Positions 44,801 through 64,000 of a DNA stretch of 64,000 bases are shown in pieces. A model generated the notes under the pieces. The model was not told where the DNA came from and did no database searches. It saw only the letters and a program-made list of their open reading frames with translations. The stretch is from NCBI GenBank assembly GCA_017477525.1, contig JAFUVO010000016.1:33119-97118 (forward strand), given 5' to 3'. The position numbers were made by a program, and so were the translations under genes. Every line of letters starts with the position of its first letter. The first letter of the stretch is position 1. The DNA comes from Oscillospiraceae bacterium (lineage in GTDB: Bacteria > Bacillota > Clostridia > Oscillospirales > Oscillospiraceae).

Positions 44801-47800
44801 GGTCTGGTTGGCCGTGATATCGGCGACGGTATCCTCTTCCACCAGCTCTCCGCCGGAGGCGCCGGTATACCAGCCGGCGAAAACGTAGCCCGGGCGTTCG
44901 GCGTCGGGCAGCTCGCCGTAGGCTTCGCCGTTGGTCACGGTGGTGTTCCGCTTGCCCGGAGTGCCGCCGTTGCCGTTGAAGCTCACAGTGTAGCTGTTCC
45001 CCTTCCATTGGGCATAGAGGACGTGGTTCTCCGCAAGCCATACGATGGTCAGATTTTCGATCAAATCGCCGCCGTCCTCGTCCGTGCTCCATCCGGCGAA
45101 GCTGTAACCGTCCCGCGTGGGGACGGGCAGGGTCCCGTAGGGGCTTTCATAGCGGACTTCCACGCTTTTCGCTATACCTCCGCCGCCGTTGGCGTCCAGG
45201 GTCACGGTGCAGGTGTTGGCGTCCCAATGGGCATAGAGGAACTGGTCATCCGTCAGCGCGGACACGGTATCCCGCTCCACTTTCGCCCCGTCCCCGTCGT
45301 CGTCGTACCAGCCGGCGAAGCTGTAGCCGTAGCGCGTGGGGACGGGCAGCTCGCCGTAGGCTTCGCCGGTGGTGGCAGTGATGCTCTTGACTGTGACCGC
45401 GCCGTCGCCGGGGTCGAAGTATACGTTGTAGCTGTTGCCCTTCCAATGGGCGTAAAGGGTCTGGTTGGACGTGATATCGGCGACGGTATCCTCCTCCACC
45501 AGTTCGCCGCCGGAGGCGCCGGTATACCAGCCGGTGAAACTGTATCCCGGGCGCTCCGGTATGGGAAACCCGCTTTCCAGTCCGTAGGGGCTGCCGTTGG
45601 TCACGCGCATCTGCTCCGCGCCGGCCTCCCCGCCGTTGGCGTCGAAGCTCACGGTATAGGTATCGCCCTTCCAGCGGGCGTAGAGCGTATGGTTTCCGGC
45701 GACGGTGACTTTATCGCCACCGGCCACCGGAACACCCTCCGCTCCTCCGGTATACCAGCCGCCGAACACATATCCCGCCAGCGTTGGGGTGGGCAGCTCG
45801 CCGTAAGGGCTGTCAAAGGTCACGCTCATACTGGCCGGCTGGACCTCGCCCCCCTTGGGGTCAAAGGCCACTTCATAGGTTCCGGCGGTCCAGCGGGCAT
45901 AGAGCGTCTGGTTCCCGGTCAGATCAACCGTGTCCCCGGCCACAACCGCGGCGCCGTCTGCCGGGGCGGTGTACCAGCCCAGGAAATCATAGCCGTACAG
46001 GGTGGGCGTGGGGAGCTCCCCATAGGCTTTGGTGTCCGTCACGGTCTTGCTGGCGGGGCTGACCTCGCCGCCGCCGGCGTCGAAGCTGATGGTATAGGAG
46101 GGGTGGGAAACCCTGACCGTGCAGGAGGCGCTGACGCCGTTGGAGGCGCTGACGCGGATGACGGCGCTGCCCTCGCCGAGCGCATGTACATTGCCGCTGT
46201 CATCCACTGTTGCGACAAGCCCGTTGCTGCTGCTCCAGCTCAGTCCGGCGGACGCGGCGGCGGCGGGCGGGACCGCGCGGAACGCCACGGGTTTGACGTC
46301 GTTTATAATCAGGTTCAGCGCCGTGTCGCCGAGTTGGAGGAGGGCCAGCGCGGGGACGGCTTCGCCGCTGACGGGATCGGCGGGGCCTTCCAGCTGCAGA
46401 TAGGGATATCCGCCGGAAATGGTCCAGGCGCTGTCAAAATCCCAGCCGGCATAGGTCGCCCGCGCCCGCATTTCCGCGTCGGTGCAGGGGGTCATGCCCC
46501 CGATATCCGCCTCAATATCCGCGTTAATCCCCGCGCAGCCGAAAATATCGCTGTTGACGCCCTCTTTTTTGAGATAATAGCAGCCGTAGACCGTGTCCGA
46601 ACCGAACACGGGCCCGTCCGTGCCGAAGAGCGCGCCGGCCAGCGCCGGACTGCTGACCGCCCCGCTGGCATAGCAGTTTGTCAATGTCAGGCTGGAATCA
46701 CCCAGTGCGCCGCCCGCGATGCCGCCCGCGTATCTGCCGGCGGTGACATCCCCGGTGCTGCGGCAGTTGGTGATCGAAACGCCCCGCCCGGAGATGCCCC
46801 CGGCGTAGTTCTCCGCCGCGGAAACTGTCCACATATTCACGCAGAGGGAGATCGCGGACCGGCCTTGCCCCTCGATGCCACCGACATAGTTATCCCCGCT
46901 GACCGTTCCGTAGTTCCTGCATCCGGTGACGATTGGGATGCTATTCGTGCCATCCCCGATAATGCCGCCAACACTGTCTCTGCCGGTCACGGAACCGTAG
47001 TTCGCACAGTACTCAAACGTAGAACCCTCTGTGTATCCCGCAATACCTCCCGCATACGCAGAGGTTACGCCGCCGGTCACGGAACCATAGTTTGCGCAGT
47101 TCTCAAAAGCAGAACTGCTTGCGTATCCCGCGATGCCACCCACAAGGGAATTACCGCTCACGTTGCCATAATTGGTGCAGTTGATAACGCTTCCCCGCAA
47201 CATGCCAACAATTCCGCCTATATAAGCAGAAGGACAGCTAACGATACCAGAGTAGATTAAATTTCTGAGGACGGTTTCACCATATCCGTATCCGATAATC
47301 CCTCCGGTCGCATCATAATAACTCTTATAATCTCTAGTATTATTTACATAAGAATTGATAACAGCCAGGTTTTTGACTTGTCCCGTTACGGTGCCGAAAA
47401 GCCCAGCACAGTAGTACCACCCCGAAACATATACGCCGGAAATCGCATGGCCGTTGCCGTCAAATATGCCTGAGAACGCCGAGCTGCTGTTTCCCCCGAT
47501 CGGCTCCCAGCTGTACAGCCGGGAAGTATTCAGTACATTCCCCTCACTGTCCAGGGAAATCTGGCTGTTGAGGACCAGGTCGTTTTTCAGGATGTAATTT
47601 CGGGTGAGCCAGCTGCCGCCCTCCCGCGCGATAAACGCGAGCTGTTCGCAGGTGGTGATCTCATAATAATACAGCCCGTCAATCTTGACCAGGGCCGTGG
47701 GCGCGGCGGTCGTGCCGTCCCAGACGTCGGCATCGGCGGAAACCTCCGGCGGGGCAGGTGGGGCGTCCCCGAGCAGCGCGGGCCCCGCGGCCCCCAAAAC

Positions 47801-47938
47801 GCCGTCCATGACGCTGTTCACCGGATCCGCCGCCGGCGGGGCCTCCGGCACGGCCTCTTCCTCCGCGAAAATTTCCGCCGGCCCCAATGTCAGCGCCATA
47901 CACAGGGCCAAAAGCGCGCAAAGAATCCTCCTTGACAT
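41816..47938 (-). CDS. Giant secreted repeat protein (2040 aa)
   Basis: Starts at ATG 47936-47938 after GGAGGG. Residues 1-24 are a signal peptide (MSRRILCALLALCMALTLGPAEIFA). Residues ~85-520 carry repeated GGIAG/GGIIG (GLUG-like) motifs. Residues ~535-612 are Big_2-like (LSWSSSNGLVATVDDSGNVHALGEGSAVIRV). Residues 614-1419 hold eleven ~73-aa repeats of the pattern Y.V.FD.NGG......V..G..YG.LP.P.R.GY.F.GWYT........T.....Q.LYA.W. Residues ~1430-1665 form a Cys/His/Asp domain. A twelfth repeat lies at 1871-1941. No LPXTG, SLH or choline-binding anchor is seen. Confidence 0.85.
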   Translation of the reverse strand: MSRRILCALLALCMALTLGPAEIFAEEEAVPEAPPAADPVNSVMDGVLGAAGPALLGDAPPAPPEVSADADVWDGTTAAPTALVKIDGLYYYEITTCEQLAFIAREGGSWLTRNYILKNDLVLNSQISLDSEGNVLNTSRLYSWEPIGGNSSSAFSGIFDGNGHAISGVYVSGWYYCAGLFGTVTGQVKNLAVINSYVNNTRDYKSYYDATGGIIGYGYGETVLRNLIYSGIVSCPSAYIGGIVGMLRGSVINCTNYGNVSGNSLVGGIAGYASSSAFENCANYGSVTGGVTSAYAGGIAGYTEGSTFEYCANYGSVTGRDSVGGIIGDGTNSIPIVTGCRNYGTVSGDNYVGGIEGQGRSAISLCVNMWTVSAAENYAGGISGRGVSITNCRSTGDVTAGRYAGGIAGGALGDSSLTLTNCYASGAVSSPALAGALFGTDGPVFGSDTVYGCYYLKKEGVNSDIFGCAGINADIEADIGGMTPCTDAEMRARATYAGWDFDSAWTISGGYPYLQLEGPADPVSGEAVPALALLQLGDTALNLIINDVKPVAFRAVPPAAAASAGLSWSSSNGLVATVDDSGNVHALGEGSAVIRVSASNGVSASCTVRVSHPSYTISFDAGGGEVSPASKTVTDTKAYGELPTPTLYGYDFLGWYTAPADGAAVVAGDTVDLTGNQTLYARWTAGTYEVAFDPKGGEVQPASMSVTFDSPYGELPTPTLAGYVFGGWYTGGAEGVPVAGGDKVTVAGNHTLYARWKGDTYTVSFDANGGEAGAEQMRVTNGSPYGLESGFPIPERPGYSFTGWYTGASGGELVEEDTVADITSNQTLYAHWKGNSYNVYFDPGDGAVTVKSITATTGEAYGELPVPTRYGYSFAGWYDDDGDGAKVERDTVSALTDDQFLYAHWDANTCTVTLDANGGGGIAKSVEVRYESPYGTLPVPTRDGYSFAGWSTDEDGGDLIENLTIVWLAENHVLYAQWKGNSYTVSFNGNGGTPGKRNTTVTNGEAYGELPDAERPGYVFAGWYTGASGGELVEEDTVADITANQTLYAHWKGNTYTVTFDPNGGTVGKGSAEVTTGEAYGELPVPTRSGYRFAGWYTGVEGGTKVEGTTVSTLSDSQTLYARWAGNEFTVYFDSGDGTVDPDSVTVYYEKAYGSLPEPVRPGYSFAGWYTDYEGGEKIENTTVVELFDDQILYARWNGLGHTVYFDAAGGAVGKRSMRVINGGFYGDMPRPTRPNYAFTGWYTDPEYGKAVERTTIADLTADQTLYAHWALMRYTVHYEANGGEGAPNDQFKTFDIPLGLSGRRPLRSGYSFFGWATAQQTDTPEYQPEDSYTENADITLYAVWLADAYPVVYEANGGAGAPEVGAKIHDTDLDLSAEIPTRAGYKFTGWATERTGSPVYQPGGLYTGNESLTLYAQWSRINNPRLPEDAGSLSYFFGNTANAFQYQGAENPIAKRIYQIMFGETQRAEKYYLAHDKWNGNCFGMAVTAGLLFENENELQPSDFSDGAESAWELGLGDSNGEISVKDFIEAVQISQFSELVQYDLTANSFTDKRYPEPLNALAGHVKNFQETGHDPAVVCVYGPEGKGHAVLGYRLTDFENSARISVYDPNYPNDSDHYIELTKENGNYTGWEYAISNRVSWGSVRGLASHISYVPYEDIYAVWKARGPGLGTGGAFVNVNLDVDIRDANGVSLASVSGGEVRSNRSDIYQMDFLGVMLDGDGEIVESDDKTVSLWLPADLYTVERLPSLNSSGLLGAAEETLEISLTHTDRSATVETGANTVILEVDDGQQLNYVRFVPEDAGKSYDVTLSSSFDAAAREINMAGTIGGESGTALSNMEGEISVTGAEDATLTVDHEQRSVTGDMDNVPRLASFAANGGSGAMPAVALRSAEYTLPVCDFSVPAGKGFAGWQMNGGAEVYQPGDTVTLSGDAVLTALWRETGDKFAVQSADCASGAVTVHVQNIAGPGIGGTVVVASYDTDGRLIGTGVREIPELRLGEVENIPVQLLTEGAASFKIFVCDDIMRPLCPAFTRNAEEK
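43682..46099 (-). repeat. Eleven tandem coding repeats (~219 nt each) of the Listeria-Bacteroides/InlB-B (Flg_new) type
   Basis: Periodic protein repeat ending in LYA[RHQV]W. At the DNA level, units 3 and 6 share a ~118-nt segment (45438-45555 vs 44781-44898) with 11 mismatches by hand alignment. Confidence 0.85.
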
Positions 47939-48018
47939 GGTCAATCCCTCCACACAACAAATATTCCCGGCCATATGCCCGTGGACGGGAACAAAGGTCC
48001 CCGCCACAGGCCATGGCC

Positions 48019-48060
48019 GGAAACGCAAAAACGGTGTTGAGCGTTTCTGACTCAACACCG
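48019..48060 (-). terminator. Intrinsic terminator-like hairpin inside the 5' leader of the giant gene (possible attenuator)
   Basis: On the minus strand, CGGTGTTGAG-tcagaaacg-CTCAACACCG (10-bp stem) is followed by TTTTTGCGTTT. It ends about 80 nt upstream of the ATG at 47938. Confidence 0.55.
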
Positions 48061-48096
48061 CTTGCAAAAAAGTCAAAGCGTAACACAACGCCCTAC

Positions 48097-48125
48097 TTGA
48101 AATGTGAAAGTGAAATGGGTATAAT
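48097..48125 (+). promoter_or_regulatory. Near-consensus sigma-A promoter with no downstream credible ORF
   Basis: TTGAAA (48097-48102), 17 bp, then TATAAT (48120-48125). Confidence 0.5.
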
Positions 48126-48243
48126 TGGGGCGTGGCGCAGACAATTCAGTTTGTTGTGTTGAGTGGTTCGAGCACTCCGCATATGGCTGCGGGGTGCTGC
48201 AACACCCCGCAGCCAGCCGCCTTCGCGTCTCCGTGCAAACACT

Positions 48244-48272
48244 ACTATAATACAGTGCGCGAAATTGTGCAA
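48244..48272 (-). promoter_or_regulatory. Candidate promoter for the giant surface protein gene
   Basis: Minus strand TTGCAC (48267-48272), 17 bp, then TATAGT (48244-48249). This would give a ~300-nt leader. Confidence 0.4.
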
Positions 48273-48443
48273 GCTTTTTTTGCATGAAATTCCATATTTC
48301 CCCCGCCGCATGGGAAAACATCCCTCAGCGCCCCCCTCCCCCGAGGATGGGGGCGGTTTGGCATTAGGCCACTTCTGGCAGAGTATCTTCGCAAAATGGC
48401 AAAAAGTCCGGCGCTGTACGTGAATTATGCGAAACGAAAACCA

Positions 48444-48502
48444 AACCGCTGTCATTGCTCACCAGCGCGTACGCTGGTGAGCAATGACAGCGGTTCTTTT
48501 TG
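48444..48502 (+). terminator. Very long perfect hairpin with T-tract (intrinsic terminator of the orphan unit)
   Basis: AACCGCTGTCATTGCTCACCAGCG-cgta-CGCTGGTGAGCAATGACAGCGGTT forms 24 perfect base pairs, followed by CTTTTTG. Confidence 0.65.
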
Positions 48503-48644
48503 TCCTGCTTTTGTAGGATTTGCTAACTTTTTTCACAGCTTCTGGCGCAAGCAATGCGAACAGTTCCGAATTGACAGGGACGTGGCATTCCGCCAAATTC
48601 CCATCCGCTCTTGTAAAAATCTTTTAAAAAGAGAAAATTTACCC

Positions 48645-48673
48645 TTGCAATTTCTGATCGGATGTGCTATGAT
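48645..48673 (+). promoter_or_regulatory. Promoter of tRNA-Arg
   Basis: TTGCAA (48645-48650), 17 bp, then TATGAT (48668-48673). It ends 25 nt before the tRNA 5' end. Confidence 0.65.
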
Positions 48674-48698
48674 ATATAAGTCCTCAGGGTTCAGATAT

Positions 48699-48775
48699 GC
48701 GCCGTTAGCTCAGCTGGATAGAGTGTCTGGCTACGGACCAGAAGGTCAGGGGTTCGAATCCCTTACGGCGTGCCA
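48699..48775 (+). tRNA. tRNA-Arg (anticodon ACG), CCA encoded
   Basis: Folded by hand. Acceptor GCGCCGT/ACGGCGT, D arm GCTC..GAGT, anticodon arm TCTGG-CTACGGA-CCAGA, T arm AGGGG-TTCGAAT-CCCTT, then GCCA. Confidence 0.93.
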
Positions 48776-48777
48776 AG

Positions 48778-48811
48778 AAATGCCCGGTTTTCTTTGAAAA
48801 CCGGGCATTTT
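48778..48811 (+). terminator. Intrinsic terminator after tRNA-Arg
   Basis: AAATGCCCGGTTTT-ctttg-AAAACCGGGCATTT followed by T. Confidence 0.75.
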
Positions 48812-48965
48812 CATAACTTTTTTGGCAGTTTTAAATGTGGGTCAAATTGCCCGACCCACATTTTGACCCACACGGGGAAAGGTTCGGATAGTACGGGATA
48901 GGAAATTCCTTTGTTTTTTTCGCTGTTTTTGCAATTCTTCAAAACTATTTCAAGATTTTTGCGGG

Positions 48966-49673
48966 TCAGGTCCTTCGTCTGCTTTGCGGGGCGAAGGGCC
49001 TTTCTTTGATTATGCGTATCATTTTTTGAACGGTCAAGGAGTCCGGTTCAACGTGGCAAAGCAGGAACAGCACCTCCACCCCCTCCTCCTGCGCCTCCGC
49101 AAGCGCAGCGCCAAATTCCGGGTGCGTAGCGGTATTGGGTCTCACTTCGGTGACGCCGTCCATCTGGATCACGAATGCGACAGCGGCATGGTAACCTTCT
49201 TTCGTGGCGCGGGCCAACTCCCGAAGATGCTTTACGCCACGCTCTGTCGGCGCATCCGGGAAATAGCCGATTCCGTCGATCTCCAGTGTACAGCCCTTGA
49301 CCTCCATCAGATACTTTTCTCTGCCCTTTTCCATGTAGAAGTCAATGCGGGAATCGCCGTAGGTGTATTCCGGAACGATTTTATCGAAGCTCTGTGTTTC
49401 CAACCACTCCCGCGCGACCTTGTTCGGCGCTTGGCTATCGATGTTGACCAACGGACCGCTTGATTTGCGCGCGGCGATCAGGTCGTATTTCGTTTTGCGG
49501 GCGGGGTTCGCCGATTGTTCCAGCCAGACTTCTGCGCCTTCCACCAATAACTCCCGGCACCGTCCTGTGTTCTTCACATGGACGGTTTCTGTTTTGCCGC
49601 CGATTTGTACATGGGCAATGAAGCGATTCGGGCGGTCAAGGAACGTTCCGCGTATGACATTGTCGTACCTCAT
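48966..49673 (-). CDS. sfsA: DNA/RNA nuclease SfsA
   Basis: MRYDNVIRGTFLDRPNRFIAHV...VHV.NTGR..ELL..G..V.L........KT.YDL and ...DSRIDF....EVK. Confidence 0.88.
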   Translation of the reverse strand: MRYDNVIRGTFLDRPNRFIAHVQIGGKTETVHVKNTGRCRELLVEGAEVWLEQSANPARKTKYDLIAARKSSGPLVNIDSQAPNKVAREWLETQSFDKIVPEYTYGDSRIDFYMEKGREKYLMEVKGCTLEIDGIGYFPDAPTERGVKHLRELARATKEGYHAAVAFVIQMDGVTEVRPNTATHPEFGAALAEAQEEGVEVLFLLCHVEPDSLTVQKMIRIIKERPFAPQSRRRT

Positions 49674-50164
49674 CTTCTGAATCTGTAAATTTTCTTCAGA
49701 CGTTCCAGCATCTCGAAAACGACAGGGCATACCTCCGCGTAGGACAGGATGCTGAAAAGGCTATGCAGCCGCTCTGGTCTGTCCGTATAGGGGAAGTCCC
49801 TGCATTCCTTCGGCTTACAGTCCTGAATCGCGCATTTTCCGTCGTCTCCGAGAAACCGGCACGGTGCCGCCAGTTCAGGTCCTTCCTCTCCCTCGGTGAG
49901 ATAGTTCTCGATAAAATCCTGCTTTTCCATGCCAAGGAAGGCAGAAATGGATGTGATTTCCTCATCCTGTAGAGGTGTTGTGAACTTTCGGCAGCAATTA
50001 GCGCATTTGCAGCAATCAAAGTCCGCAAACAGCTCCCGAAGCAGTTCCAGAAACTGATGATCCAGCTCGTCCTCATCCGCATGGATTTTCAGAAACGTCC
50101 GAAATTGCAGATTCTCATCCTCCGTCCGCTTCGCCGTTTTGCGGAGCTGTCTGGGCGTCATCAT
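49670..50164 (-). CDS. YkgJ family cysteine-cluster protein (UPF0153)
   Basis: CCKCANCCRKF...C.FL..DGKCAIQDCKPKECRDFP matches the CxxCxxCC family pattern. Confidence 0.75.
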   Translation of the reverse strand: MMTPRQLRKTAKRTEDENLQFRTFLKIHADEDELDHQFLELLRELFADFDCCKCANCCRKFTTPLQDEEITSISAFLGMEKQDFIENYLTEGEEGPELAAPCRFLGDDGKCAIQDCKPKECRDFPYTDRPERLHSLFSILSYAEVCPVVFEMLERLKKIYRFRR

Positions 50165-50823
50165 TTTGATTTGCCTCCCGGCATGACCTTTGGCGAGATA
50201 AAGATGTAGGTATCCTGATCGCCTTCATAGCCGCAGACGCCCATGCGGGGAGAATTGGTAATGGGAAGCAGCATTTCTTCATGCTCGTGTCCCTCCGCAC
50301 AAGCCTCGCAATAGAAGGGGTTGTCGGTTTCATAGATACATTCTGCGCAGATATAGGCGGCATCCGCGCCGCACTCTGCGCACCGGAACACAGGAGGAAT
50401 GTTCCGTGCGAGCAGACGCACCGCTTCCTTTTGCGGCTTGCGGAACGTGCGCCCGATTACGGTAATCAGAGTTTCCGTGGTACTGCCGAAATCATATTCG
50501 TGCAGCAACTGGTCGCTGTCCGAAAAAACACCCAGTTTGCGGTTCTTGCCGATCTCCCGATGGCCCGGTCCGCTGAACGCGCTCATGTGTCCGCAACACT
50601 CCAGCCAGATTTTGCGCAGGAATGTGTCCAGCGTATTCAGCGTACTGCTGACCGGAATGTCAACGTACAGCCAATAGTCTTTGTCATAGGCCCCTTCGAT
50701 CTTGAGCAGGCAACACTCCTGTCCAGCCGCTTCACCGTGCGTTTTCAGGAGATGGTTTTTCATCGCCACCTTCCCCAGTTCCGCGCCGCAGAGATAGCAG
50801 TTTCCTTTTGTAGCGGATGCCAT
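50161..50823 (-). CDS. Zinc-finger protein with pRiA4b ORF-3-like core
   Basis: The N-terminus is CYLCGAELGK...HLLKTH. The core is YWLYVDIP...TLDTFLRKIWLECCGHMSAF...HEYDFGSTTE (PRiA4_ORF3-like). The C-terminus has CAEC..CAEC..CEAC..H.H clusters. Family assignment is tentative. Confidence 0.45.
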   Translation of the reverse strand: MASATKGNCYLCGAELGKVAMKNHLLKTHGEAAGQECCLLKIEGAYDKDYWLYVDIPVSSTLNTLDTFLRKIWLECCGHMSAFSGPGHREIGKNRKLGVFSDSDQLLHEYDFGSTTETLITVIGRTFRKPQKEAVRLLARNIPPVFRCAECGADAAYICAECIYETDNPFYCEACAEGHEHEEMLLPITNSPRMGVCGYEGDQDTYIFISPKVMPGGKSK

Positions 50824-50950
50824 GCTGTCACCCTTCTTTCTGTATGAGGTATCTTCATTATAGTGCATTTGACGAAAAAAACAAGACCAGGCCTTGCTTT
50901 CTGTAAAGAATTCTGATAATGTTTCTATGCCGCCTGTAAATTTGAAAAAG

Positions 50951-50983
50951 CAGCACGGCGGATGATGCTTATCCGCCGTGCTG
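50951..50983. terminator. Hairpin terminator downstream of the integrase gene
   Basis: CAGCACGGCGGAT-gatgctt-ATCCGCCGTGCTG forms a 13-bp stem with T-tracts on both strands. Confidence 0.7.
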
Positions 50984-50995
50984 TGTTTTGATAGC

Positions 50996-52150
50996 TTACA
51001 CCGCTCCCGCCAGGAAGTTCCCCACCTTGTTCGCTGCGTCCTGCTTCATCGCCTTGGTGATATGCCCATAGGTGTCAAGTGTAAACCCTGCACTGTAGTG
51101 GCCCAGCAGGCCGGAAAGCGTCTTTACATCCACGCCGTTCTGGAGTGCCAAGGTAGCGAATGTATGTCTGAGTGAATGGAACGGAATTTCCTCCATCCCC
51201 GCCCGTTTTAGGACGCGGTGGAGCATCTTCAGCATGCTGTCAGGGCACATTGGACCACCCGACGGCGAGGAGAAGGCATAGATGCTGAAGCCGTCTTCCC
51301 TCTCCTTTTTCTCCCTTAGTATCTGGACCACCTCCGTCGCGACGATGATCTGGCGATAAGCATTCTTAGTTTTCAGAGGTGACTCCTTGACCTCGCCGTT
51401 TAGCCGTGTAATTTGGCGTTGGATGTAGATGCTCCCAGCCTCGAAGTCGATGTCATCCCAATGGATGCCCAGCAGCTCGCCCCGGCGGAGGCCCGTTGAC
51501 AGCTCCGTATAATAGAGCTCGAACACGCCGCTGTGTTTTGCTTCGAGGAAGAAGGCTTCCAGTTTATCCAGAGGAAGCGTTTTCATCTCCGTCTTTTCCT
51601 TCTTCGGCAGGACGCAGCCGGTGGCGGGATTCTCCGGGATCATCTTTTCCTTGACCGCCTGCTCCAGCGCGTGGGAGATGAAGAAGTGCATGTTACGGAT
51701 CGACTTCGCCGCAAGGCCCTTCGGCTGTTTCTCGGACTCCTTCCGCTGAACCCGTCCGCTTTTGCCCATACGATTGTAGAAGAGTTGGATGTCGTGGGTT
51801 GTAAGTTTTTGAAGCTTGGCTTTGCCGACGCTGCTGGTGGCGATTTGGTTTTTGAGAAACCCTTCGTAGTTGATCCGTGTGGATTCCCTGAGATAGACTT
51901 TGCCGTAGGTGTCCATCCAGTAACGGAGCCATTGAGCCAGCGTGTACTCGTCCGCCTTTGCCACGTTGGAGATATCTGCGAGGGCAACCGCGTCTTTCAG
52001 CTTGGCCTTGACCTCCGCTTGGGTTCTTCCGAGAACATTTTTAATGACGCGCCTGCCGTTTTCATCATACCCTGCGGTATAGCGTCCTTCCCAGCGTCCA
52101 TCTTTCCGCTTGCGGATATTGCCCTCACCGTTTGCTCTGCGCTTGGCCAT
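50996..52150 (-). CDS. Tyrosine-type site-specific integrase
   Basis: The N-terminal arm-binding region is MAKRRANGEGNIRKRKDGRWEGRY. The catalytic C-terminus is HSLRHTFATLALQNGVDVKTLSGLLGHYSAGFTLDTYGH. Confidence 0.92.
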   Translation of the reverse strand: MAKRRANGEGNIRKRKDGRWEGRYTAGYDENGRRVIKNVLGRTQAEVKAKLKDAVALADISNVAKADEYTLAQWLRYWMDTYGKVYLRESTRINYEGFLKNQIATSSVGKAKLQKLTTHDIQLFYNRMGKSGRVQRKESEKQPKGLAAKSIRNMHFFISHALEQAVKEKMIPENPATGCVLPKKEKTEMKTLPLDKLEAFFLEAKHSGVFELYYTELSTGLRRGELLGIHWDDIDFEAGSIYIQRQITRLNGEVKESPLKTKNAYRQIIVATEVVQILREKKEREDGFSIYAFSSPSGGPMCPDSMLKMLHRVLKRAGMEEIPFHSLRHTFATLALQNGVDVKTLSGLLGHYSAGFTLDTYGHITKAMKQDAANKVGNFLAGAV

Positions 52151-56738: not shown

Positions 56739-57044
56739 GGTGGCTAATATTGATTCAGGCGACGCAGATGGTGACGCCATGGAGGATATGAGTGAGCAGA
56801 ATTGTTTGTATCGGGGATTCCAATAAGCTCCAGCTCTCCTGCATGGATACATTTTTCACTCTTTTCCGCCTTATACTGCCAGATTTGTTCAGTCAATGGT
56901 AGGAGTGCTTCGCCACGCAGGACAAAGATAGCAAGCCGTCGGAAACGTGGACTTGTGCCGACCTCATGCTGCGATATGGGCTTTCCTCGCCGGACACGGC
57001 GGAAATGGCTTGCAAGAAAGCATTGGAAACACAGATTTCAAAGA

Positions 57045-58733
57045 ATTTACGTAGATAGGAATCGGCGAAAAGGGGGCCTATTCGCTCAAAGAAATGCCAA
57101 GGCATTGAAGCAATTCCAAGTCTTTCTTCGGAATCTCAGAAAGGCGGTTACTTTTGGAAACAAGGTTGTCACGCACTCGATAGATGTTTTTTCCCATCGA
57201 AAGAATATCTTCCGGAGAGTAAGTGCTACTTAAATCATTTTCCCTCAACAACTTAACTACTCCATAGAAATACAAAAGACTAATGTGATTGATGAAGGAC
57301 CATGCTTCCAATTCTTCATTTGTTCTCTTGTATGAAGCACCAATCTGAATTGCGTTTTTCAGATAATCAAAGCACTGTTCAACATCCCAGCGTTCTTTAT
57401 AGGTCATATAAATCTGTTTGGGAGAGAACCCAGTGTTGCTGATGAATGCAAACATTCCACGCCTTGCGTCATCAAAAATGGATGCTGATTCCATTCCATC
57501 ATAATCAGCTTCCTTTTTCTGCAGAAATGACACTTCAGCTTGCATTTTGCGTTTATCATCGCGGAAAATATAGACCTTGTTTCCTTGAATGCCGCTGTCT
57601 AAAGTTTTGTACCAAATATTTCGTCCTTTATATGGGAAGCAGCCATCAAACTTGTGGTCATCCGGGTTTTCGACAAATTCGTCCGGAATTAGCCGAGTGT
57701 TGTATTGCAGTGGCAAAATGAATGTAATTTTGTTTTCCATAAGGAAACTAATGTTTTTCTTGGAATAGAATCCTTTATCAGCAATGATAATGCAATTGTG
57801 GCACCCAGATGCAGAAATAGTTTCTTTTAGAGCGGTTTTGTCGGTTATATTGCCAGGAACCATCCGATAGAAAACCGGCATAAATGAGCTACGGTCAAAT
57901 ATGTACAGAAGCCGTACTTGGGTTTCCTGCTTGTGATCGGGGTTATACCCTTTCTGTGCATAACTGTCATCTGCTCTTGTAAATATACTTGTACCGTCAA
58001 ACAACAGTTTTGATCCCGATTTCATAGAACTACGCATAAAGGAAGTCATATCCCCACTACGGGAACCGAGTTTTCCGATCAGGGTACGAACCGTATAATC
58101 GCTACAAGCAAGGTCTGGATGTATGTCATTTAAATATGAAGCCTCAAATTCACGCTTAATTCGCTTTCCGTGGCAGCCAGTTACAAGCTGCAACATGGAA
58201 ACAACAGATATTTCTCTGTAGATATCCGGAAAACACTCTTTCAAACGGTTTTCAAGATTTCCAGATAACTGAGACAATATAGCATAAGCACCATAGTTTT
58301 TGACGATAGGATGGAGTGGCATTATCCTACGCATTCCATATGTGTTTGGTATAAAGCCGTCTTCAAGTGTAATCTTCCCGAGCGATTTTCCTGTTACTTT
58401 GCAAGCTTTTCTTTTACTGGGATTCCATTTGGAGGAAATCTCATAAACGTAGAAATGGCCTGAAATACAGCGGATTTCCACAGAGCCATAGTCAGTTGGT
58501 TTCAATGCCTTGATTGCTTCCGGAATAGCCATAGTATCCTCCGACATATATCCGTAATTTACGGATATATAATACCATGTTTTCAGCTAAAAGGGAAGTC
58601 TAAATTTCAAAAAATCCAGGCATTTTGGCGTATATTTTTCTGATTCCGCCCATTATTAGTAGCGCTTTTGATAGTCATCGCGGAATATCCTATTGAAATC
58701 TCGAATTTAGCCGACGTTCCTATCTACGTAAAT
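57045..58733 (-). mobile_element. Insertion sequence, IS1634/IS4-like (~1.69 kb)
   Basis: Terminal inverted repeats: ATTTACGTAGATAGGAA at 57045-57061 and its exact reverse complement at 58717-58733. These are followed inward by an imperfect TCGGC..AAA extension. The element contains a single DDE transposase gene. It is much more AT-rich than its surroundings by eye. Confidence 0.8.
57078..58547 (-). CDS. DDE transposase, IS1634/IS4 family
   Basis: 489 aa with ...IIADKGFYSKKNI... and the C-terminal YKERWDVEQCFDYLKN block typical of IS4-group DDE_Tnp_1 enzymes. Confidence 0.8.
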   Translation of the reverse strand: MSEDTMAIPEAIKALKPTDYGSVEIRCISGHFYVYEISSKWNPSKRKACKVTGKSLGKITLEDGFIPNTYGMRRIMPLHPIVKNYGAYAILSQLSGNLENRLKECFPDIYREISVVSMLQLVTGCHGKRIKREFEASYLNDIHPDLACSDYTVRTLIGKLGSRSGDMTSFMRSSMKSGSKLLFDGTSIFTRADDSYAQKGYNPDHKQETQVRLLYIFDRSSFMPVFYRMVPGNITDKTALKETISASGCHNCIIIADKGFYSKKNISFLMENKITFILPLQYNTRLIPDEFVENPDDHKFDGCFPYKGRNIWYKTLDSGIQGNKVYIFRDDKRKMQAEVSFLQKKEADYDGMESASIFDDARRGMFAFISNTGFSPKQIYMTYKERWDVEQCFDYLKNAIQIGASYKRTNEELEAWSFINHISLLYFYGVVKLLRENDLSSTYSPEDILSMGKNIYRVRDNLVSKSNRLSEIPKKDLELLQCLGISLSE

Positions 58734-58790
58734 ACTTGTCTTTTTGTGTTGGAAAGATGAAAAACTACTTATAAAAAGGGGGCAAGGTAG

Positions 58791-59165
58791 ATGATTGAGA
58801 AAAGAGCTTGGCGATACTGCGTCGTCGGCAATATCGTCAGAGCGCATTATGATTCCGACGGCATTCTTCGGCACGGAACCTCAGCATACGTGGGCGGCGC
58901 AAAGGTCTATCTGGCCGGCAAGAGCTGGGACAATCATCAGAATGAAATCAGTATTCTCGGGTTGACCAGGGGCAAGCGGCAGCAAGTCCACGAGGTGCCT
59001 GTGGAACTGATAGAAAATGTCAGATGCCAAAGAGTGTATCAGCCATCAATCTTGAATATTATGGGAGTTCATGAGTTCGCTTGCTGCTGGTGGGGCAATA
59101 CGCAGGAGGACAAGAAGTCGGCAGAAGAGTTTGCCGTGCAATGGAATTGCGAAAAGGAGGAATAG
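58791..59165 (+). CDS. Hypothetical protein (124 aa), no recognisable family
   Basis: ATG preceded by AAGGGGG. It is followed 3 nt later by the next ORF. I found no Walker A, HExxH or other catalytic motif. Confidence 0.55.
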   Translation: MIEKRAWRYCVVGNIVRAHYDSDGILRHGTSAYVGGAKVYLAGKSWDNHQNEISILGLTRGKRQQVHEVPVELIENVRCQRVYQPSILNIMGVHEFACCWWGNTQEDKKSAEEFAVQWNCEKEE

Positions 59166-59167
59166 AA

Positions 59168-60265
59168 ATGAAACTTTTTGATGAATTTGAAGCAGTAAAA
59201 TTCCCTGAAGAGAATCTGATTTTCATTACGTGCAACGGATACCTTTACTACATTTATGATCCTGAATCGAACTTTTGGAGGAAGCACAGAAACGCCGGAA
59301 ACGATCATATTACCGTGCAGAATTATGAGGAAGTGAGCAGAGAAGAAATAATCGCTGCAATGGGAGGCTCTTTTCCGACGAAAGCAACTGATTTTACCAG
59401 AATGTGTAAACCATCGCTATTGCATATTGGCAATATGATGGACCTGCTTGTTGAGGATTATCCCAAGTATATGTCAGGCAGGGAAATATGCCGCGCGGTT
59501 CACCGCTTTTTATTAGAGTCGGTTATTCCTCACAAGTCTTATCTGGGCATAAAAAAGCTCTTTGACAACGCCGCTGCGCGTCATCAGGGCAATGATCAGG
59601 TTTTAACTCATCTAATGAATTTATGCGATTCTTTTCTCGGCAGGGATATCTTCAAGAAAGAGATCGGGATAGTAGACGGTCATGACAGCTCATCCTATTT
59701 TTGGATCATGCCCGTTAGAGTTATTGATGATTCAGACACAAACGCTCTGGACAATGTTGCCGAAATGAAAAGTGTCGAAATATCAATTGAGGAAAACGAT
59801 GTCAATCAATACCTCACTCCGTTTCTCTATCAATATTTTGATGAGGAACTGGAAGCCAACAAAAAGAGGGTTGACTATTGTTGGACAGATGATGACGGAA
59901 ATGAGCATGCAACATATGTAAACGGCTTTGAGTGGTATTTGACCCATAATTTCTACACGTTTGATTCGATTCATAAAATTTTAGATGACATCCGTGATAC
60001 ATCTGATGCGCTGCTTGCCGGAAGAGAAACCGAATATACAATGAAACTAAGAGAAAAACGGGGTTGGGCTACTTATGAATTGCTCTATGCTAAGGGTCTC
60101 AGCAATGAGCAAGTCAAGGACTACAATGTCAACAGGCCAAAGGAAGATTACACCGAAGTGGAATTGATTGTTGATTTTTATCGGAGATTTTCCTATCGAA
60201 TGGAATATATGATGAGAGTTGGAGCAGAAAAAGGGTATAATCTGATTTCCTTTATGGGACCTTAA
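59168..60265 (+). CDS. Hypothetical protein (365 aa), no recognisable family
   Basis: ATG 59168 is preceded by AAGGAGGAA. AT-rich codon usage is consistent across the ORF. No catalytic or nucleotide-binding motif was recognised. Confidence 0.65.
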   Translation: MKLFDEFEAVKFPEENLIFITCNGYLYYIYDPESNFWRKHRNAGNDHITVQNYEEVSREEIIAAMGGSFPTKATDFTRMCKPSLLHIGNMMDLLVEDYPKYMSGREICRAVHRFLLESVIPHKSYLGIKKLFDNAAARHQGNDQVLTHLMNLCDSFLGRDIFKKEIGIVDGHDSSSYFWIMPVRVIDDSDTNALDNVAEMKSVEISIEENDVNQYLTPFLYQYFDEELEANKKRVDYCWTDDDGNEHATYVNGFEWYLTHNFYTFDSIHKILDDIRDTSDALLAGRETEYTMKLREKRGWATYELLYAKGLSNEQVKDYNVNRPKEDYTEVELIVDFYRRFSYRMEYMMRVGAEKGYNLISFMGP

Positions 60266-60306
60266 AAGCAGAGAGAAGAGAACATCACCGGAATAAGGAG
60301 GTAAAT

Positions 60307-60534
60307 ATGGGCGGGTATCATGGTTATAATGTCAGATCCACGCTCGAATCATATTTCGGCAAGGAACCGCTTCAAGAAATGCGGGCAGAACACGAACGCT
60401 TGCAAGACGCGAGCGATACTGCAGGCATTATCCCCCACGTCTGGGAACAAGCAGACGAAATAATGCTTTTTCTCTGTCAATCGGAATACTTTCTGCATGC
60501 AGGACCTCTACGGACACGCAAAGATAGCATATGA
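60307..60534 (+). CDS. Hypothetical small protein (75 aa)
   Basis: ATG is preceded by AAGGAGG. It lies 41 nt after the previous ORF and is followed by an imperfect hairpin (60541-60577). Confidence 0.5.
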   Translation: MGGYHGYNVRSTLESYFGKEPLQEMRAEHERLQDASDTAGIIPHVWEQADEIMLFLCQSEYFLHAGPLRTRKDSI

Positions 60535-60581
60535 ACAAAAAACCGCCCTTAGGCAATCATCCTGCCCAAGGACGGATTTCT

Positions 60582-61922
60582 TTATCTGAGGACTTCCCAG
60601 TGCCCAAAACGGTTCCCGCCAACGCGAACAAGAATACCGGCATTTTTCATTTCTTTGATTGCCCGCTGCAGCGTTCGGAGCGGCACAGCCAATTCTGTCG
60701 TCAGTTCACTTTGCGTAATATCCGGTTTTTTCAAGATAATTTCCAGTATCTTATCCGCCAAACCGCCATCCATTCCGCCAGCGTGGCGGATTGGCGGATT
60801 GGGCATTTTTTCCGGAGAACTCTGCAACGCAGTAAACTTAACCGTCAAATCATCGCCCAACACAGAGTATTCCGGGTCGGGTGTCCCCAGTTCACGGCAG
60901 GCCTCGATGATTTTCTGAATTCCGCGGCCCCACGCTTCAATATAGCCGGCGCGATAGAAGGCATTGGCGATGGATGGATTAAAGGGAACAGAGCGATGTG
61001 TCTGCATCAGTGTTTCTACTGTCCAGTCCCGTGGCAGAATGCAACTGTTGCTAATATACATAGCCTCATCTTCGATGCGGATCTGGATGGGAATACTGGC
61101 GGCATAATTGTTGTGGGCCAGCGCATTGTAGACTGCCTCGCGTACTCCCTCGCGTGGAAAGGGGTAAGTCTCAACCCGAACGTCGTGCTCATAGGTAATG
61201 GCCGCTTTGAGGTACTTCGTAAAGATCAGATCAATGACCAGATCGGCAATGTGGAACAGCGAGCCCTCCACGGTGTCCTGGTATTGCAAGTTGGAGCCCT
61301 CGCCGAATTTTCCGATCTTCACATAGCAGCCGGAGATGATACGTCCGGGCTTCTTGCTGAAGAGCATGACTGCGGCCCGTTTCAGTTTTCCGTCCGTAAG
61401 CAGATCAAGATGATCGAGCAGTTCTTCGTTGGAAATGCTCAGATCCTTCTTGGTCATGCGGTTGTTCTTGACGGCTTCTCTCCGAAAAATTTCAATGCTG
61501 TCCTTGTCCAGGTCGTCCACGCCAATGCTGTCCACCGGGACCGCATCCCAACGATAGCCGGTTTTTGATACCAGAAACTCTGTCAGCGTTGCTCCGCGGA
61601 GCTGTTGCTTGGTGCTGCCGCTCCGGTAGTGGTACTCGCCCTTGTAACTAACCGGGTAGGAGCTGGGATGAACCTTGATCTCAATATACTCCAAACTGTC
61701 CTGCGCCAGCAGATTCACATCCGCGATGATGCCCATGGTATCCTGGATCTTGTTCGGAATATCCTCCAACAGCCGCTTCCCATTTGTAAGGCCAACAACC
61801 TTTCCGTCATCACGGATGCCAATATAAATCGTACCGCCCTGCGCATTGGCAAACCCGCACACCCATTTCAGATATTCATCTCGCCAAGATTCCTTATACT
61901 CGATATTTTGGCTCTCCGGCAT
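60582..61922 (-). CDS. AlbA_2/Schlafen-like DNA-binding domain, HATPase_c_4-like domain and C-terminal wHTH protein (annotated in databases as ATP-binding protein or putative transcriptional regulator)
   Basis: The N-terminus ESQNIEYKESWRDEYLKWVCGFANAQGGTIYIGIRDDG is the AlbA_2 signature. The central region is EAVYNALAHNNY...I...FNP.IANAFYRAGYIEAWGRGI. The C-terminal HTH is ITQSELTTELAVPLRTLQRAIKEMKNAGIL. Confidence 0.8.
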   Translation of the reverse strand: MPESQNIEYKESWRDEYLKWVCGFANAQGGTIYIGIRDDGKVVGLTNGKRLLEDIPNKIQDTMGIIADVNLLAQDSLEYIEIKVHPSSYPVSYKGEYHYRSGSTKQQLRGATLTEFLVSKTGYRWDAVPVDSIGVDDLDKDSIEIFRREAVKNNRMTKKDLSISNEELLDHLDLLTDGKLKRAAVMLFSKKPGRIISGCYVKIGKFGEGSNLQYQDTVEGSLFHIADLVIDLIFTKYLKAAITYEHDVRVETYPFPREGVREAVYNALAHNNYAASIPIQIRIEDEAMYISNSCILPRDWTVETLMQTHRSVPFNPSIANAFYRAGYIEAWGRGIQKIIEACRELGTPDPEYSVLGDDLTVKFTALQSSPEKMPNPPIRHAGGMDGGLADKILEIILKKPDITQSELTTELAVPLRTLQRAIKEMKNAGILVRVGGNRFGHWEVLR

Positions 61923-61943: not shown

Positions 61944-62171
61944 TCACCAATTCGGATCGGCTGCCATTTGGTTCAAGCAGAGATAGAACGCCGCCTGCTG
62001 ATAGGACTCGTCCATCTTTTTCACTGCCTCGCACAAATCATGGATGGCCTTTACAGCCTTTGCGACTTCAAGGTCTTGATTTGAACCGTAGGCCGGAATC
62101 TGATCCCGAACACTATGATAATATTGCGAATTCACAGTTTGTGGGTTGAGCATCTGATTATTGAAATACAT
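61944..62171 (-). CDS. Hypothetical small protein (75 aa) between hsdR and the AlbA_2 gene
   Basis: ATG preceded by GGAGGG. It starts 21 nt after the hsdR stop and ends 21 nt before the AlbA_2 gene start. No family recognised. Confidence 0.55.
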   Translation of the reverse strand: MYFNNQMLNPQTVNSQYYHSVRDQIPAYGSNQDLEVAKAVKAIHDLCEAVKKMDESYQQAAFYLCLNQMAADPNW

Positions 62172-62192: not shown

Positions 62193-64000
62193 TCAGCTTA
62201 CCAGCAGCAAATCCTTGATTTTGCGGATAATCGTATTTCTGATCTGCAGCTTGACTGGCTTATTCTCGCTCAACTCGGTATAGAACTCCGCTTTCTCCGT
62301 ATCCCCGCTGATCGTTCCGTCAAAAGCCCCGTCCATGATTTTGGCGTCGAGGCGCTCGGAAACAGCGGCTTCATATGCGCTGGGCGTACTGTTCTTGACA
62401 TTGGACTGCAAATCGCTGTCCTCGCTCAGATCGGAGATCATGCTCTTGATCTCCGCATCCGCATTGGCGTAACGAAGATTGAACTTTTCAATAATCTCGT
62501 CGATCAGTGACAGAGTACGGTCTGCGGCAACCACATCCGTGGAGATTCCATCAAACGCCTGATCTTCTTTTGAAAGGACGATTGCGAATTCCTCTTGCGA
62601 AGCTTTGGTGGAATACTCCACCAGCTCCACCAACTCGGAAGCGTCGATCTCCGGTGTGACCTCTCGCTCGTACAGAACGTTATATAGCACGCTGAAGACA
62701 ATGGCCAACTGCTCCATATCCGGGTTCCACACGTTGTATACAGAGGAAATGTAGTAAAACAGCTTCCCGAATTTCTTCAGCTCCAAGGCAAATGTCTTTT
62801 GCCTTTCTGCATCCAGCGTACGATAGTTCCTGGAAATGCCGGCAAGCAGAGAAGTCAGCTCCCCGCTGTTTTGCTCATCGGAGGAGATCAGCGCATAGAT
62901 TTTCTGCGCATCCAGAAGCGTGACAACGCAATAATCCAGGATGTGATCCCGCTTAGCAAACAGGATGTTCGGATCTGCCTCGTTCTCTGATGGCAGGAAC
63001 AACTCGCCCCCATAGTATTGCGTGAAATAGGTCTTGATTTCTTCCGGGGGATTTATGAAATCCATCACAAAGGTGCGCTTGTTCTTTGCCGGACGGTTCA
63101 GGCGGGAGATCGTCTGCACGGCCTTGACGGCGCCTCCGAGCTTCTTGTCAATATACATGACGCAGAGCTTGTTTTCGTCAAAACCCGTCTGCAGCTTATC
63201 CGCCACGATAATGATGCGGCAATCATCGTTTTTCCGGATGATCGACTTGATGTCATAGGGCGCGCCGTTTTCCAGGTAGTCTCGGTTCATGGTCTCTTCG
63301 GTGAATTTTAACCCGTCAAGCTCGATCGTTCCCGTAAAGGCCACACAGGCGCGGAACGCACAGCCACGCTTTTTCAGGTATTCATCCGCCGCCAGCTTAT
63401 AGCAGACCGCATGCTTGCGGGAGGGCGTGATGATCATGGCCTTGGCTTTCCCACCCAGCCAACCCTGCCGCCGGTCAATGAAATCGCTCAGCATGATCTC
63501 CGTTTTTGTTTGAATGACTTCATCAGAAGTCGTTACATAGTTCAGGATCGCCGTCTGCGCCTTGGCACTGTCATACGCGGTGGCGTCATCCTTCTTCTTT
63601 TCAACGCGGTAGAAATCCCGAAAAGAGGAATAGCAGAGAAGCGGATTGAGAATAAATCGCTCTTCGATCGCCTGCTTCATAGAATACTTGTCGAAAAAGG
63701 TCTTTCCGATCTCCGTACGGGTACCGAAGAGCTCCATGGTCTCCTTCTTCGGCGTTGCAGTGAAGGCAAAATAGCTGACATTTCGCGTGTTGCGGATGGC
63801 CGCGCCATCTCTAAGCAAAAGGTTCTGCCCATCCTCCAGTTCCTCATAAACATCGTCCAGTTCCACAGACTCTTTCAGAGATTTTCCGGTTAATGTCTCG
63901 GATGCTTTGGACATGGATTTACCGGCAGTGGAAGAGTGCGCTTCATCAATGATAATGGCGTAGTTCCGATCTTTATGCTGCTTGATCTCGTTGAGAATCG
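62193..64000 (-). CDS. hsdR: Type I restriction endonuclease subunit R (HsdR), N-terminus outside the window
   Basis: The reading frame stays open to the window edge. Upstream of the listed Met it reads ILNEIKQHKDRNYAIIIDEAHSSTAGKS (DEAH box). Helicase motifs follow: FTATP, VADKLQTGFDE, and QTISRLNR. Confidence 0.85.
   Translation of the reverse strand, partial: ILNEIKQHKDRNYAIIIDEAHSSTAGKSMSKASETLTGKSLKESVELDDVYEELEDGQNLLLRDGAAIRNTRNVSYFAFTATPKKETMELFGTRTEIGKTFFDKYSMKQAIEERFILNPLLCYSSFRDFYRVEKKKDDATAYDSAKAQTAILNYVTTSDEVIQTKTEIMLSDFIDRRQGWLGGKAKAMIITPSRKHAVCYKLAADEYLKKRGCAFRACVAFTGTIELDGLKFTEETMNRDYLENGAPYDIKSIIRKNDDCRIIIVADKLQTGFDENKLCVMYIDKKLGGAVKAVQTISRLNRPAKNKRTFVMDFINPPEEIKTYFTQYYGGELFLPSENEADPNILFAKRDHILDYCVVTLLDAQKIYALISSDEQNSGELTSLLAGISRNYRTLDAERQKTFALELKKFGKLFYYISSVYNVWNPDMEQLAIVFSVLYNVLYEREVTPEIDASELVELVEYSTKASQEEFAIVLSKEDQAFDGISTDVVAADRTLSLIDEIIEKFNLRYANADAEIKSMISDLSEDSDLQSNVKNSTPSAYEAAVSERLDAKIMDGAFDGTISGDTEKAEFYTELSENKPVKLQIRNTIIRKIKDLLLVS

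Follow-up and report, generated by a model that had tools for sequence, protein, structure and literature searches.

Several described systems offer points of comparison for orfA, orfB and orfC, three open reading frames (ORFs) carried on an integrative mobilizable element of an Oscillospiraceae bacterium, at 58791-60534 of a 64,000-nt stretch of DNA (contig JAFUVO010000016.1, positions 33,119 to 97,118; hereafter the window). Abortive infection (Abi) genes of low-GC Gram-positive bacteria are single-gene defences. Nuclease immunity proteins, such as barstar and the colicin Im proteins, and DNA mimics, such as ArdA and Ocr, are acidic, and immunity and anti-defence proteins tend to diverge fast. 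Zhang et al. (2012, PMC3482391) describe ankyrin repeats and ADP-ribosyl glycohydrolase fusions among immunity proteins and in polyimmunity loci of heterogeneous make-up. The leading regions of conjugative elements carry anti-defence islands of characteristic layout (Samuel et al. 2024, PMC11541004). An initial annotation of the window had proposed that the three ORFs form one undescribed system for defence or toxin immunity. We propose instead, and give this reading taken whole about an even chance of being right, that the locus is a decayed, variable cargo array on the element, in which orfB probably encodes a binding protein, and not a three-gene system.

Relatives of orfA and orfB are found in extended same-strand arrays whose genes are mostly unique (loci L011, L034, L079 and L130), and by analogy these arrays would seem to resemble polyimmunity loci and to share some features of leading regions, with the defining markers of either not found in the families listed for them. 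As in polyimmunity loci, the arrays consist of unrelated small to medium cytoplasmic proteins encoded on one strand, whose membership and order vary between close relatives; domains are fused in alternative combinations (orfA with DUF6508, the C-terminal domain of orfB with different N-termini); ankyrin-like and ADP-ribosylglycohydrolase members occur, some of the arrays have recombinase genes nearby and no toxin is present in the locus. Unlike polyimmunity proteins, orfA and orfB match no Pfam Imm or SUKH family, nor do any of the neighbour families listed; the window holds two intact genes between remnants rather than an extended array; and orfB shows much higher conservation than is typical of immunity proteins, is often solitary and has no known cognate toxin. 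The likeness to leading-region islands lies in genes of unknown function on a mobilizable element, opposite the relaxase and pointing away from it, and in one orfA-orfB relative beside a polyvalent protein (L078), whereas most members of the orfB family are not near a detectable relaxase or integrase and none was found in the plasmids and phages searched.

Architecture and decay of the locus

All three ORFs lie on the plus strand: orfA (58791-59165, 124 aa), orfB (59168-60265, 365 aa) and orfC (60307-60534, 75 aa). The decisive comparison is with an independent metagenome contig, L088, which is 91.8% identical over 1748 nt spanning exactly 58750-60496 of the window, and which carries orfA (124 aa) and, 2 nt on, orfB (365 aa); a third ORF starts 41 nt after orfB and runs without a stop for 101 codons, up to where the contig ends. 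The window diverges from L088 at 60496/7, where 12 unrelated codons run to a stop at 60534, followed by the terminator and 3' end of an AlbA_2 gene. orfC itself has two relatives only among 5.8 billion proteins, and it aligns with residues 10-70 of WG_beta_rep proteins of 804 aa and 1550 aa that adjoin orfB in L056 and L057. The collinearity with L088 up to 60496, together with the continued ORF there, indicates that orfC is a 5' stub, cut off where the adjoining defence block was attached. The 75-aa ORF consists of the first 63 codons (60307-60496) of a large WG-repeat gene ("c2") plus 12 unrelated codons, and is no gene in its own right. The proposed three-gene unit is therefore not upheld: orfC is a stub, orfA and orfB are apart in most loci, and the order of the trio recurs only in L088, where the third gene is long. 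At least three other samples yielded contigs with the decayed arrangement seen in the window.

Several details of the initial annotation stand. Three plus-strand ORFs of these lengths were found at the expected coordinates, each with a purine-rich site ahead of it: the Shine-Dalgarno sequence AAGGAGG lies 6-7 nt 5' of orfB and of orfC, and GGGGG/AAGG lies upstream of orfA. The start of orfB is the ATG at 59168, as fixed by alignment with homologues. Of the two gaps, given as 3 nt and then 41 nt, the second was confirmed and the first measures 2 nt. Gaps of 2 and 41 nt are too small for attC sites, and a reading as integron cassettes was dropped for that reason. An Rfam scan of 56.5-60.8 kb gave no match, and a promoter scan of the locus gave matches no more numerous than in shuffled sequence.

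On the left, the locus is bordered by an insertion sequence (IS) of the IS1634 family (57030..58748, minus strand; transposase gene 57078-58547, minus strand). Its DDE transposase matches NCBIfam transpos_IS1634 (E 1.2e-46) and Pfam DDE_Tnp_1, and scores 159.7 bits against NF033559, above the cut-off of 100; imperfect terminal inverted repeats of 34 nt, 79% complementary, lie within 57028-57061 and 58717-58750; and the direct repeat TTGGAAA brackets the element at 57023-57029 and 58749-58755, a 7-bp target duplication. The IS thus shares the transposase, repeats and duplication of its family, but it only adjoins and interrupts the locus. Beyond it stands the 3' remnant of a helix-turn-helix (HTH) gene (56903..57029, plus strand), about 40 codons without a start, whose product resembles sigma-70 region 4. 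The frame of the remnant is open from 56903 only, and its translation, WTCADLMLRYGLSSPDTAEMACKKALE, aligns with that of the gene upstream of orfA in L088, WTYTDLMLHYGLSSPDTVEKVCRKALEKMKNYL*. In L088, the intact relative, this HTH gene stands before orfA and the sequence is uninterrupted across the insertion point, which in the window falls in the last codons of the already decayed HTH gene; homology resumes on the far side of the IS, about 1.7 kb away. The continuity of L088 and the TTGGAAA duplication indicate that the IS interrupted a pre-existing block and did not deliver the genes. The IS was for the same reasons rejected as the carrier of the cassette, since L088 runs through the site and the IS has a target duplication of its own.

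These alignments show the ancestral arrangement to have been HTH gene, orfA, orfB and large WG-repeat gene, as kept in L088. The HTH gene first lost its 5' part; the IS1634-family element then inserted into its last codons, separating orfA and orfB from whatever stood upstream; and the WG-repeat gene was cut at codon 63, where the AlbA_2/type I restriction-modification (R-M) block joins. Breaks in the WG-repeat gene were also seen elsewhere. It was cut independently in two lineages, at sites within about 6 nt of each other: in the window (60440-60500) at codon 63, with the join to the AlbA_2 3' end, and in L016-L020 (about 1329-1400 in L016) at codon 61, where the joined DNA has three repeats of about 15 nt (CGAAAATCGCCAAT-like). 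A third lineage, L092/L093 (711-1070), has an in-frame stop at codon 80, after which the ORF goes on in frame. About 35 nt ahead of the break, conservation at the DNA level is unusually high, and the break point may be a recombination or insertion hot spot.

Base composition does not support arrival of the ORFs as one AT-rich block, as had been suggested. The AT-richness of the cassette holds for orfB, with a G+C of 0.402 (0.42 at third codon positions, GC3), and fails for orfA (0.507; GC3 0.61) and the stub (0.484; GC3 0.49), which are near the adjoining AlbA_2 gene (0.517; GC3 0.62) and the part of hsdR in the window (0.507; GC3 0.66). The IS on the left has a G+C of 0.395 (GC3 of its transposase gene 0.41), the element backbone at 48-56.7 kb 0.545 and the chromosome at 1-47 kb 0.617. 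orfA and orfB are therefore 10 points apart in G+C and 19 in GC3. Moreover, orfB is lower in G+C than its flanks at 40 of 44 loci, which makes its AT-richness a family trait and no evidence for joint arrival of the three ORFs. The ratios of nonsynonymous to synonymous substitution rates relative to L088, 0.22 for orfA and 0.35 for orfB, indicate that both intact genes are under purifying selection.

orfA and orfB are self-contained single-gene modules

Neighbourhoods of orfB were examined at 67 species-level loci and 10 metagenome loci, and those of orfA at 80 loci, about 45 of them with enough flank to judge. A relative of orfA adjoins orfB in L078 (order A-B) and L073 (B-A) and lies 8 kb off in L047, making 3 of the 67 loci. 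Conversely, a relative of orfB adjoins orfA in L115 (B-A-WG gene) and L170 (B-A), and in L129 a distant orfB relative lies about 0.9 kb from orfA, making 3 of the 80. Each family is missing from over 90% of the other's loci, and the order varies where the two are adjacent. Such co-location is far above chance for two rare families, yet there is no fixed unit, and among relatives the three genes are essentially never conserved together, the outcome that tells against a three-gene system. Across about 150 related loci, orfA and orfB are self-contained single-gene modules that stand mostly apart.

The family of orfB is large. At E<1e-3 it comprises 727 clusters at 90% identity, nearly all of 361-367 aa and 60-70% identical, and an exhaustive profile search gave 412 representatives at 50% clustering. 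Carriers include Oscillospiraceae, Ruminococcus, Christensenellaceae, Lachnospiraceae, Erysipelotrichaceae, Gastranaerophilales and metagenome-assembled genomes of Fretibacterium and of an alphaproteobacterium; cultured carriers are Yanshouia hominis BX1 and Yeguia hominis NSJ-40. We found no match by tblastn in 72,556 plasmids or 50,697 phages, and none in a scan of IMG/VR. The protein is acidic, with an isoelectric point (pI) of 4.96 and a net charge of -20 in the window copy, and so is the family throughout, with a median pI of 4.8 in 120 full-length proteins and 4.7 in 26 stand-alone C-terminal domains. An AlphaFold2 model (mean predicted local distance difference test score, pLDDT, 92.7) consists of a five-stranded N-terminal beta-meander (residues 1-40), a helical bundle (58-157) and a C-terminal alpha/beta domain (about 163-365). 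Foldseek comparison of this model with the PDB and BFVD gave nothing significant (best E 0.57 and 0.32, respectively), and the predicted structure may provisionally be regarded as a new fold.

The C-terminal domain of orfB also occurs by itself (about 190 aa) and on other N-termini, and a distant form is carried by Alloiococcus sp. CFN-8 and by Treponema strains. It was seen fused to a TrpH-like PHP phosphoesterase (P0220 and P0228, about 482 aa; two clusters, with 14 and 24 members) and at the C-terminus of a full-length topoisomerase IA (P0363, 994 aa). A Pfam scan of 57 distant C-domain proteins returned no DUF, just the PHP and topoisomerase fusion domains, and the source names for ten clusters were all "hypothetical" or "PHP domain-containing". 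In this wide family the conserved positions are mainly aromatic or hydrophobic, the few polar ones being S206, E209 and N261; the conserved polar residues of orfB itself are GHD at 171-173, E204/S206/E208/E209/D211 and H260/N261.

orfA belongs to a small uncharacterised family, with 26 clusters among the 5.8 billion proteins, and was recovered at 80 metagenome loci. The family is mildly basic (median pI 8.3), and the AlphaFold2 model (pLDDT 91.2) has a small SH3-like beta-barrel followed by a C-terminal helix. Compared with the PDB by Foldseek, this model gave no significant match (best E 0.09; SH3 domains at E 0.2-0.6, Sm-like ones also weak), and the resemblances to SH3 and to YfbM were set aside as too weak to use. 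The domain was also found in a 602-aa fusion with a DUF6508-containing region (L094 5791-7599) and fused to an acetyltransferase region that reads as GNAT-like (L114 5563-6891), and stand-alone DUF6508 genes occur within the orfA arrays (L011). Our literature search found no papers on DUF6508 or on DUF6076, a family encoded elsewhere on the element.

That none of the three ORFs shows a recognisable motif or family, as the initial annotation had concluded by reading, is borne out by scans of Pfam, NCBIfam and PHROGs, which gave no family match, and of PADLOC-DB v2.0.0, which gave no match at E<=0.1; at the locus, the neighbouring AlbA_2 and hsdR alone match. Alignments of orfA and orfB had no match at E<=10 among PDB sequence profiles, and the profile, structure and PADLOC comparisons together revealed no significant homology for either. 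Recurrent partners (WG-repeat c2, ankyrin-like c1, DUF3841, DUF4186 and others) likewise had no relevant match in PADLOC. The earlier view of the locus as mobile-element cargo beside defence genes is thus retained, with two intact, conserved proteins that belong to no described family in the libraries searched.

The neighbours of orfB are varied. A conserved partner was rejected, as no neighbour family occurs in more than about 12% of loci. A WG-repeat family is found at about 8 distinct loci, on either side of orfB, an ankyrin-like family (c1) at about 8 (ankyrin-like by reading; no Pfam match) and a shorter ankyrin family (c24) at 3. The 115 non-redundant same-strand neighbours matched 141 Pfam families, none of which was matched by more than two proteins; functions span defence, RNA repair and plain housekeeping (IMP dehydrogenase, GMP synthase, S-adenosylmethionine synthetase), and at many loci orfB is alone between opposite-strand genes. 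Gene annotation is on record for three of the loci: SMODS-SLATT, WYL and Hen1-Pnkp lie near orfB in L001; NgoFVII-type R-M, Vsr and a Gabija-like pair of OLD-TOPRIM and UvrD in L005; and HipBA, a Hachiman-like HamA with helicase and a type IIG enzyme in L009. An ADP-ribosylglycohydrolase with DUF3841 lies near orfB in L032 and L033. RNA-repair modules stand near orfB homologues of different phyla (L001 3860-9152, L047 4745-11098, L062 1425-5700); in L047, Hen1-Pnkp and a pair of AAA_33 kinase and Thg1-like genes both precede orfB, with a 25-nt gap before it, and in L062 the kinase and Thg1-like pair belongs to a same-strand run with orfB. In L078 (1688-12483), genes resembling orfA and orfB come after one for a polyvalent protein of 2477 aa, which contains LPD38 and PBECR3 nuclease domains as well as an HExxH motif; next to them is a gene for a 489-aa protein, the C-terminal half of which reads as membrane-spanning.

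Candidate functions of orfB

The absence of a catalytic signature, the prevalence of aromatic or hydrophobic residues at conserved positions of the wider C-domain family, the conserved acidity, the fusions to enzymes of nucleic-acid metabolism and the recurrence of damage-reversal or binding-repeat neighbours (Hen1-Pnkp, Thg1-like protein with kinase, ADP-ribosylglycohydrolase, ankyrin-like and WG-repeat proteins) lead us to suggest that orfB binds rather than catalyses. More specifically, orfB may be a stand-alone acidic protein that serves as a decoy or inhibitor, covering the basic surface with which a nuclease-type enzyme binds nucleic acid, and so protects the host cell or the element; this is a tentative proposal, which we would expect to fail somewhat more readily than to hold. 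The targets could be a ribotoxin, a DNase effector or a restriction or defence nuclease, and orfA, with its mildly basic SH3-like barrel, would serve the same type of array as a small binding module of its own. Like ArdA and Ocr, orfB is acidic, but it has no sequence match to these DNA mimics and no significant structural match in the PDB.

A number of observations weigh against this proposal. orfB has no known target, nor does any toxin or nuclease gene regularly adjoin it; the 25 families listed for each neighbour set (of 141 and 51 matched) include no Pfam Imm or SUKH family. The identity of 60-70% across phyla is unusual for an immunity or anti-defence protein and would fit an enzyme, and the conserved polar residues could, judging from the alignment, form an active site. 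Acidity by itself is weak evidence for a binder. Finally, the fold libraries searched were the PDB and BFVD for orfB and the PDB for orfA, and a known fold may have been missed with this comparison. A more general formulation, which we consider rather doubtful, is that orfB founds a new acidic family with a fold unseen in the PDB and BFVD and spread by recent cross-phylum transfer, acting as a protective single-gene module, or as a core that recruits WG-repeat, ankyrin-like or orfA partners, and either neutralising a nucleic-acid-targeting toxin or nuclease or triggering defence.

The solitary habit and defence-gene setting of orfB could also be those of a stand-alone Abi-type anti-phage gene, in which the C-terminal domain senses infection and the N-terminal part acts. 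The three annotated loci place orfB amid Gabija-like, Hachiman-like, SMODS-SLATT, HipBA and R-M genes, and the window copy is beside type I R-M, SoFic and AlbA_2 genes; orfB is often monocistronic, is AT-richer than its flanks as described above, combines a constant C-terminal domain with differing N-terminal modules (PHP phosphoesterase included) and was not found in the phage or IMG/VR collections. In being solitary, AT-rich, horizontally spread, about 300-400 aa long and without a recognisable domain beside R-M or other defence genes, it is indeed like Abi genes. Unlike them, it has no similarity to PADLOC models, Abi families included, and is much more conserved across phyla; no effector domain is recognisable, the recurrent partners have no PADLOC match either, many loci have housekeeping neighbours only, and the defence-gene context is drawn from loci without a control set. 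We regard such a role as unlikely.

The orientation of the genes on the element raises a further alternative, that orfA and orfB are early-expressed establishment or anti-defence genes directed against restriction or other defences of the recipient. They lie opposite the MobL relaxase gene, across the relaxase-upstream region, and are transcribed away from it, which matches the leading-region layout described for conjugative elements (PMC11541004). In L078, the orfA-orfB pair comes directly after the LPD38/PBECR3 polyvalent protein, and polyvalent proteins are thought to act at invasion (PMC5512222); in L011, orfA is part of a long same-strand array behind a relaxase, a Toprim protein and a coupling protein; and an acidic protein is compatible with DNA mimicry. 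However, an integrase or relaxase was BLAST-detectable near orfB in only 6 of 44 loci of at least 8 kb (a lower bound), orfB was without match in the plasmids and phages searched, and no ArdA, Acr, PsiB, SSB or orphan methyltransferase was found among the window neighbours or among the family matches listed for the neighbours and arrays. In the window, moreover, the IS separates orfA and orfB from upstream DNA. An establishment role is, on this balance, distinctly unlikely.

Where orfA and orfB do meet, they could act together, either as a facultative two-component module or with orfB as a core that takes interchangeable binding partners (SH3-like, ankyrin-like or WG-repeat proteins). The 2-nt gap is kept in L088, tight adjacency (16-18 nt) is found in at least five independent lineages (window/L088, L078, L115, L170 and L073), about one third of distinct orfB loci adjoin a WG-repeat gene (8), an ankyrin-like c1 or c24 gene (11) or orfA (3-5), and the trio of orfA, orfB and WG-repeat gene exists in two different orders, that of the window and L088 and that of L115. 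The inconstant order (A-B and B-A), the absence of each family from more than nine tenths of the loci of the other, the frequent occurrence of orfB alone and the 19 points that separate adjacent orfA and orfB in GC3 leave a partnership with a poor chance of being correct. Two forms of pairing were rejected: a polymorphic toxin-immunity pair, as the WG-repeat neighbour is upstream or downstream depending on the locus and there is no Pfam toxin domain, and a type II toxin-antitoxin pair, as orfA and orfB are mostly apart, orfB has 365 aa and no toxin-antitoxin family was matched. The WG-repeat protein of L005 has no signal peptide, from reading its sequence, and only in L078 does a giant protein encoded upstream bear a nuclease domain (PBECR3), which is not C-terminal. 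Hidden paralogy of orfA or orfB with recurrent neighbours was also dropped, as hidden Markov model searches gave none.

Least probable is that orfB is an accessory factor in RNA repair or tRNA metabolism. In favour, orfB stands 3' of Hen1-Pnkp both in the L001 group and, as a separate lineage, in L047; it follows the kinase and Thg1-like pair in L047 and belongs with such a pair to one same-strand run in L062; it has a TRAM/tRNA-U5 methyltransferase gene upstream in L056 and L057; and its C-terminal domain is represented in the TrpH-like PHP fusions. RtcB is among the orfA neighbours, and bacterial Thg1-like proteins mend tRNA 5' ends (PMC3061083). Against it, this context is seen at no more than about 5 of 65 distinct loci, RNA-related genes adjoin orfB at a minority of loci, and so acidic a protein is unlikely to bind RNA directly.

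The surrounding element and the meaning of the locus

The gene content of the element agrees with the initial placement of the locus between an IS and a convergent hsdR-orf75-AlbA_2 block in an integrative mobilizable element. To the left of the locus lie genes for a tyrosine integrase, a MobL relaxase with Sel1 repeats, HTH_36, HTH_17 and DUF6076, and then the IS. To the right, the junction with the AlbA_2/type I R-M block (60497..60581, minus strand) contains the intrinsic terminator of the AlbA_2 gene, a stem of 14 pairs at 60543-60575 (minus strand) followed by a T-run. The block consists of an AlbA_2/Schlafen-HATPase_c_4-wHTH gene (60582-61922), orf75, an ORF of 75 aa that is part of the neighbouring defence block (61944-62171), and hsdR (62193 to past the window edge at 64000), all on the minus strand; the AlbA_2 gene and hsdR have both Pfam and PADLOC matches. 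This block is a neighbour and lies outside the orfA-orfB cassette. Truncation of hsdR was rejected, the cut being that of the window edge only; the gene encodes 982 aa in the full contig, where hsdS, a Bro-N gene, hsdM and a Fic/SoFic gene lie beyond it. In L177 (1-10228; about 64-72 kb in window coordinates), Fic/SoFic, hsdM, Bro-N, hsdS, hsdR, the 75-aa ORF and the AlbA_2/Schlafen-HATPase_c_4-wHTH gene are all on one strand, with an ISLre2/UPF0236 transposase gene after them; this region is a compact multi-system defence island, a type I R-M operon with embedded extra genes. A sibling contig from another sample, L179 (2051-4999), has a TAC-to-TAA nonsense change that splits hsdR into 393 and 573 aa, which indicates that the restriction subunit is inactivated in part of the population.

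Further upstream, G+C drops near 47-48 kb from about 0.65 to about 0.49-0.55 (window 47000-51000). As the SfsA, CxxCxxCC and integrase genes all lie downstream of this drop, low G+C sets in ahead of the integrase. A gene at 41816-48088 (minus strand) encodes a 2090-aa protein with 11 Listeria-Bacteroides repeats (Flg_new), Big_2 and GLUG motifs, which is probably a cell-surface protein, and the 1631-aa ORF opposite this gene (42365-47260) is probably a high-GC artefact.

Both orfA and orfB define new families that lack annotation but are of a familiar type, the variable cargo of conflict islands, and orfB is the more interesting of the two: a large, well-conserved and unannotated family present across phyla in gut and rumen bacteria, with a confidently predicted structure that has no relative in the libraries searched. 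The locus also illustrates how insertion of an IS and replacement of a block leave behind stubs that resemble small genes. If orfB does act as a nuclease blocker or a phage-resistance gene, it would be a new single-gene player in bacterial conflict biology and would provide a handle on the many cargo genes without annotation that integrative elements carry in gut Clostridia.

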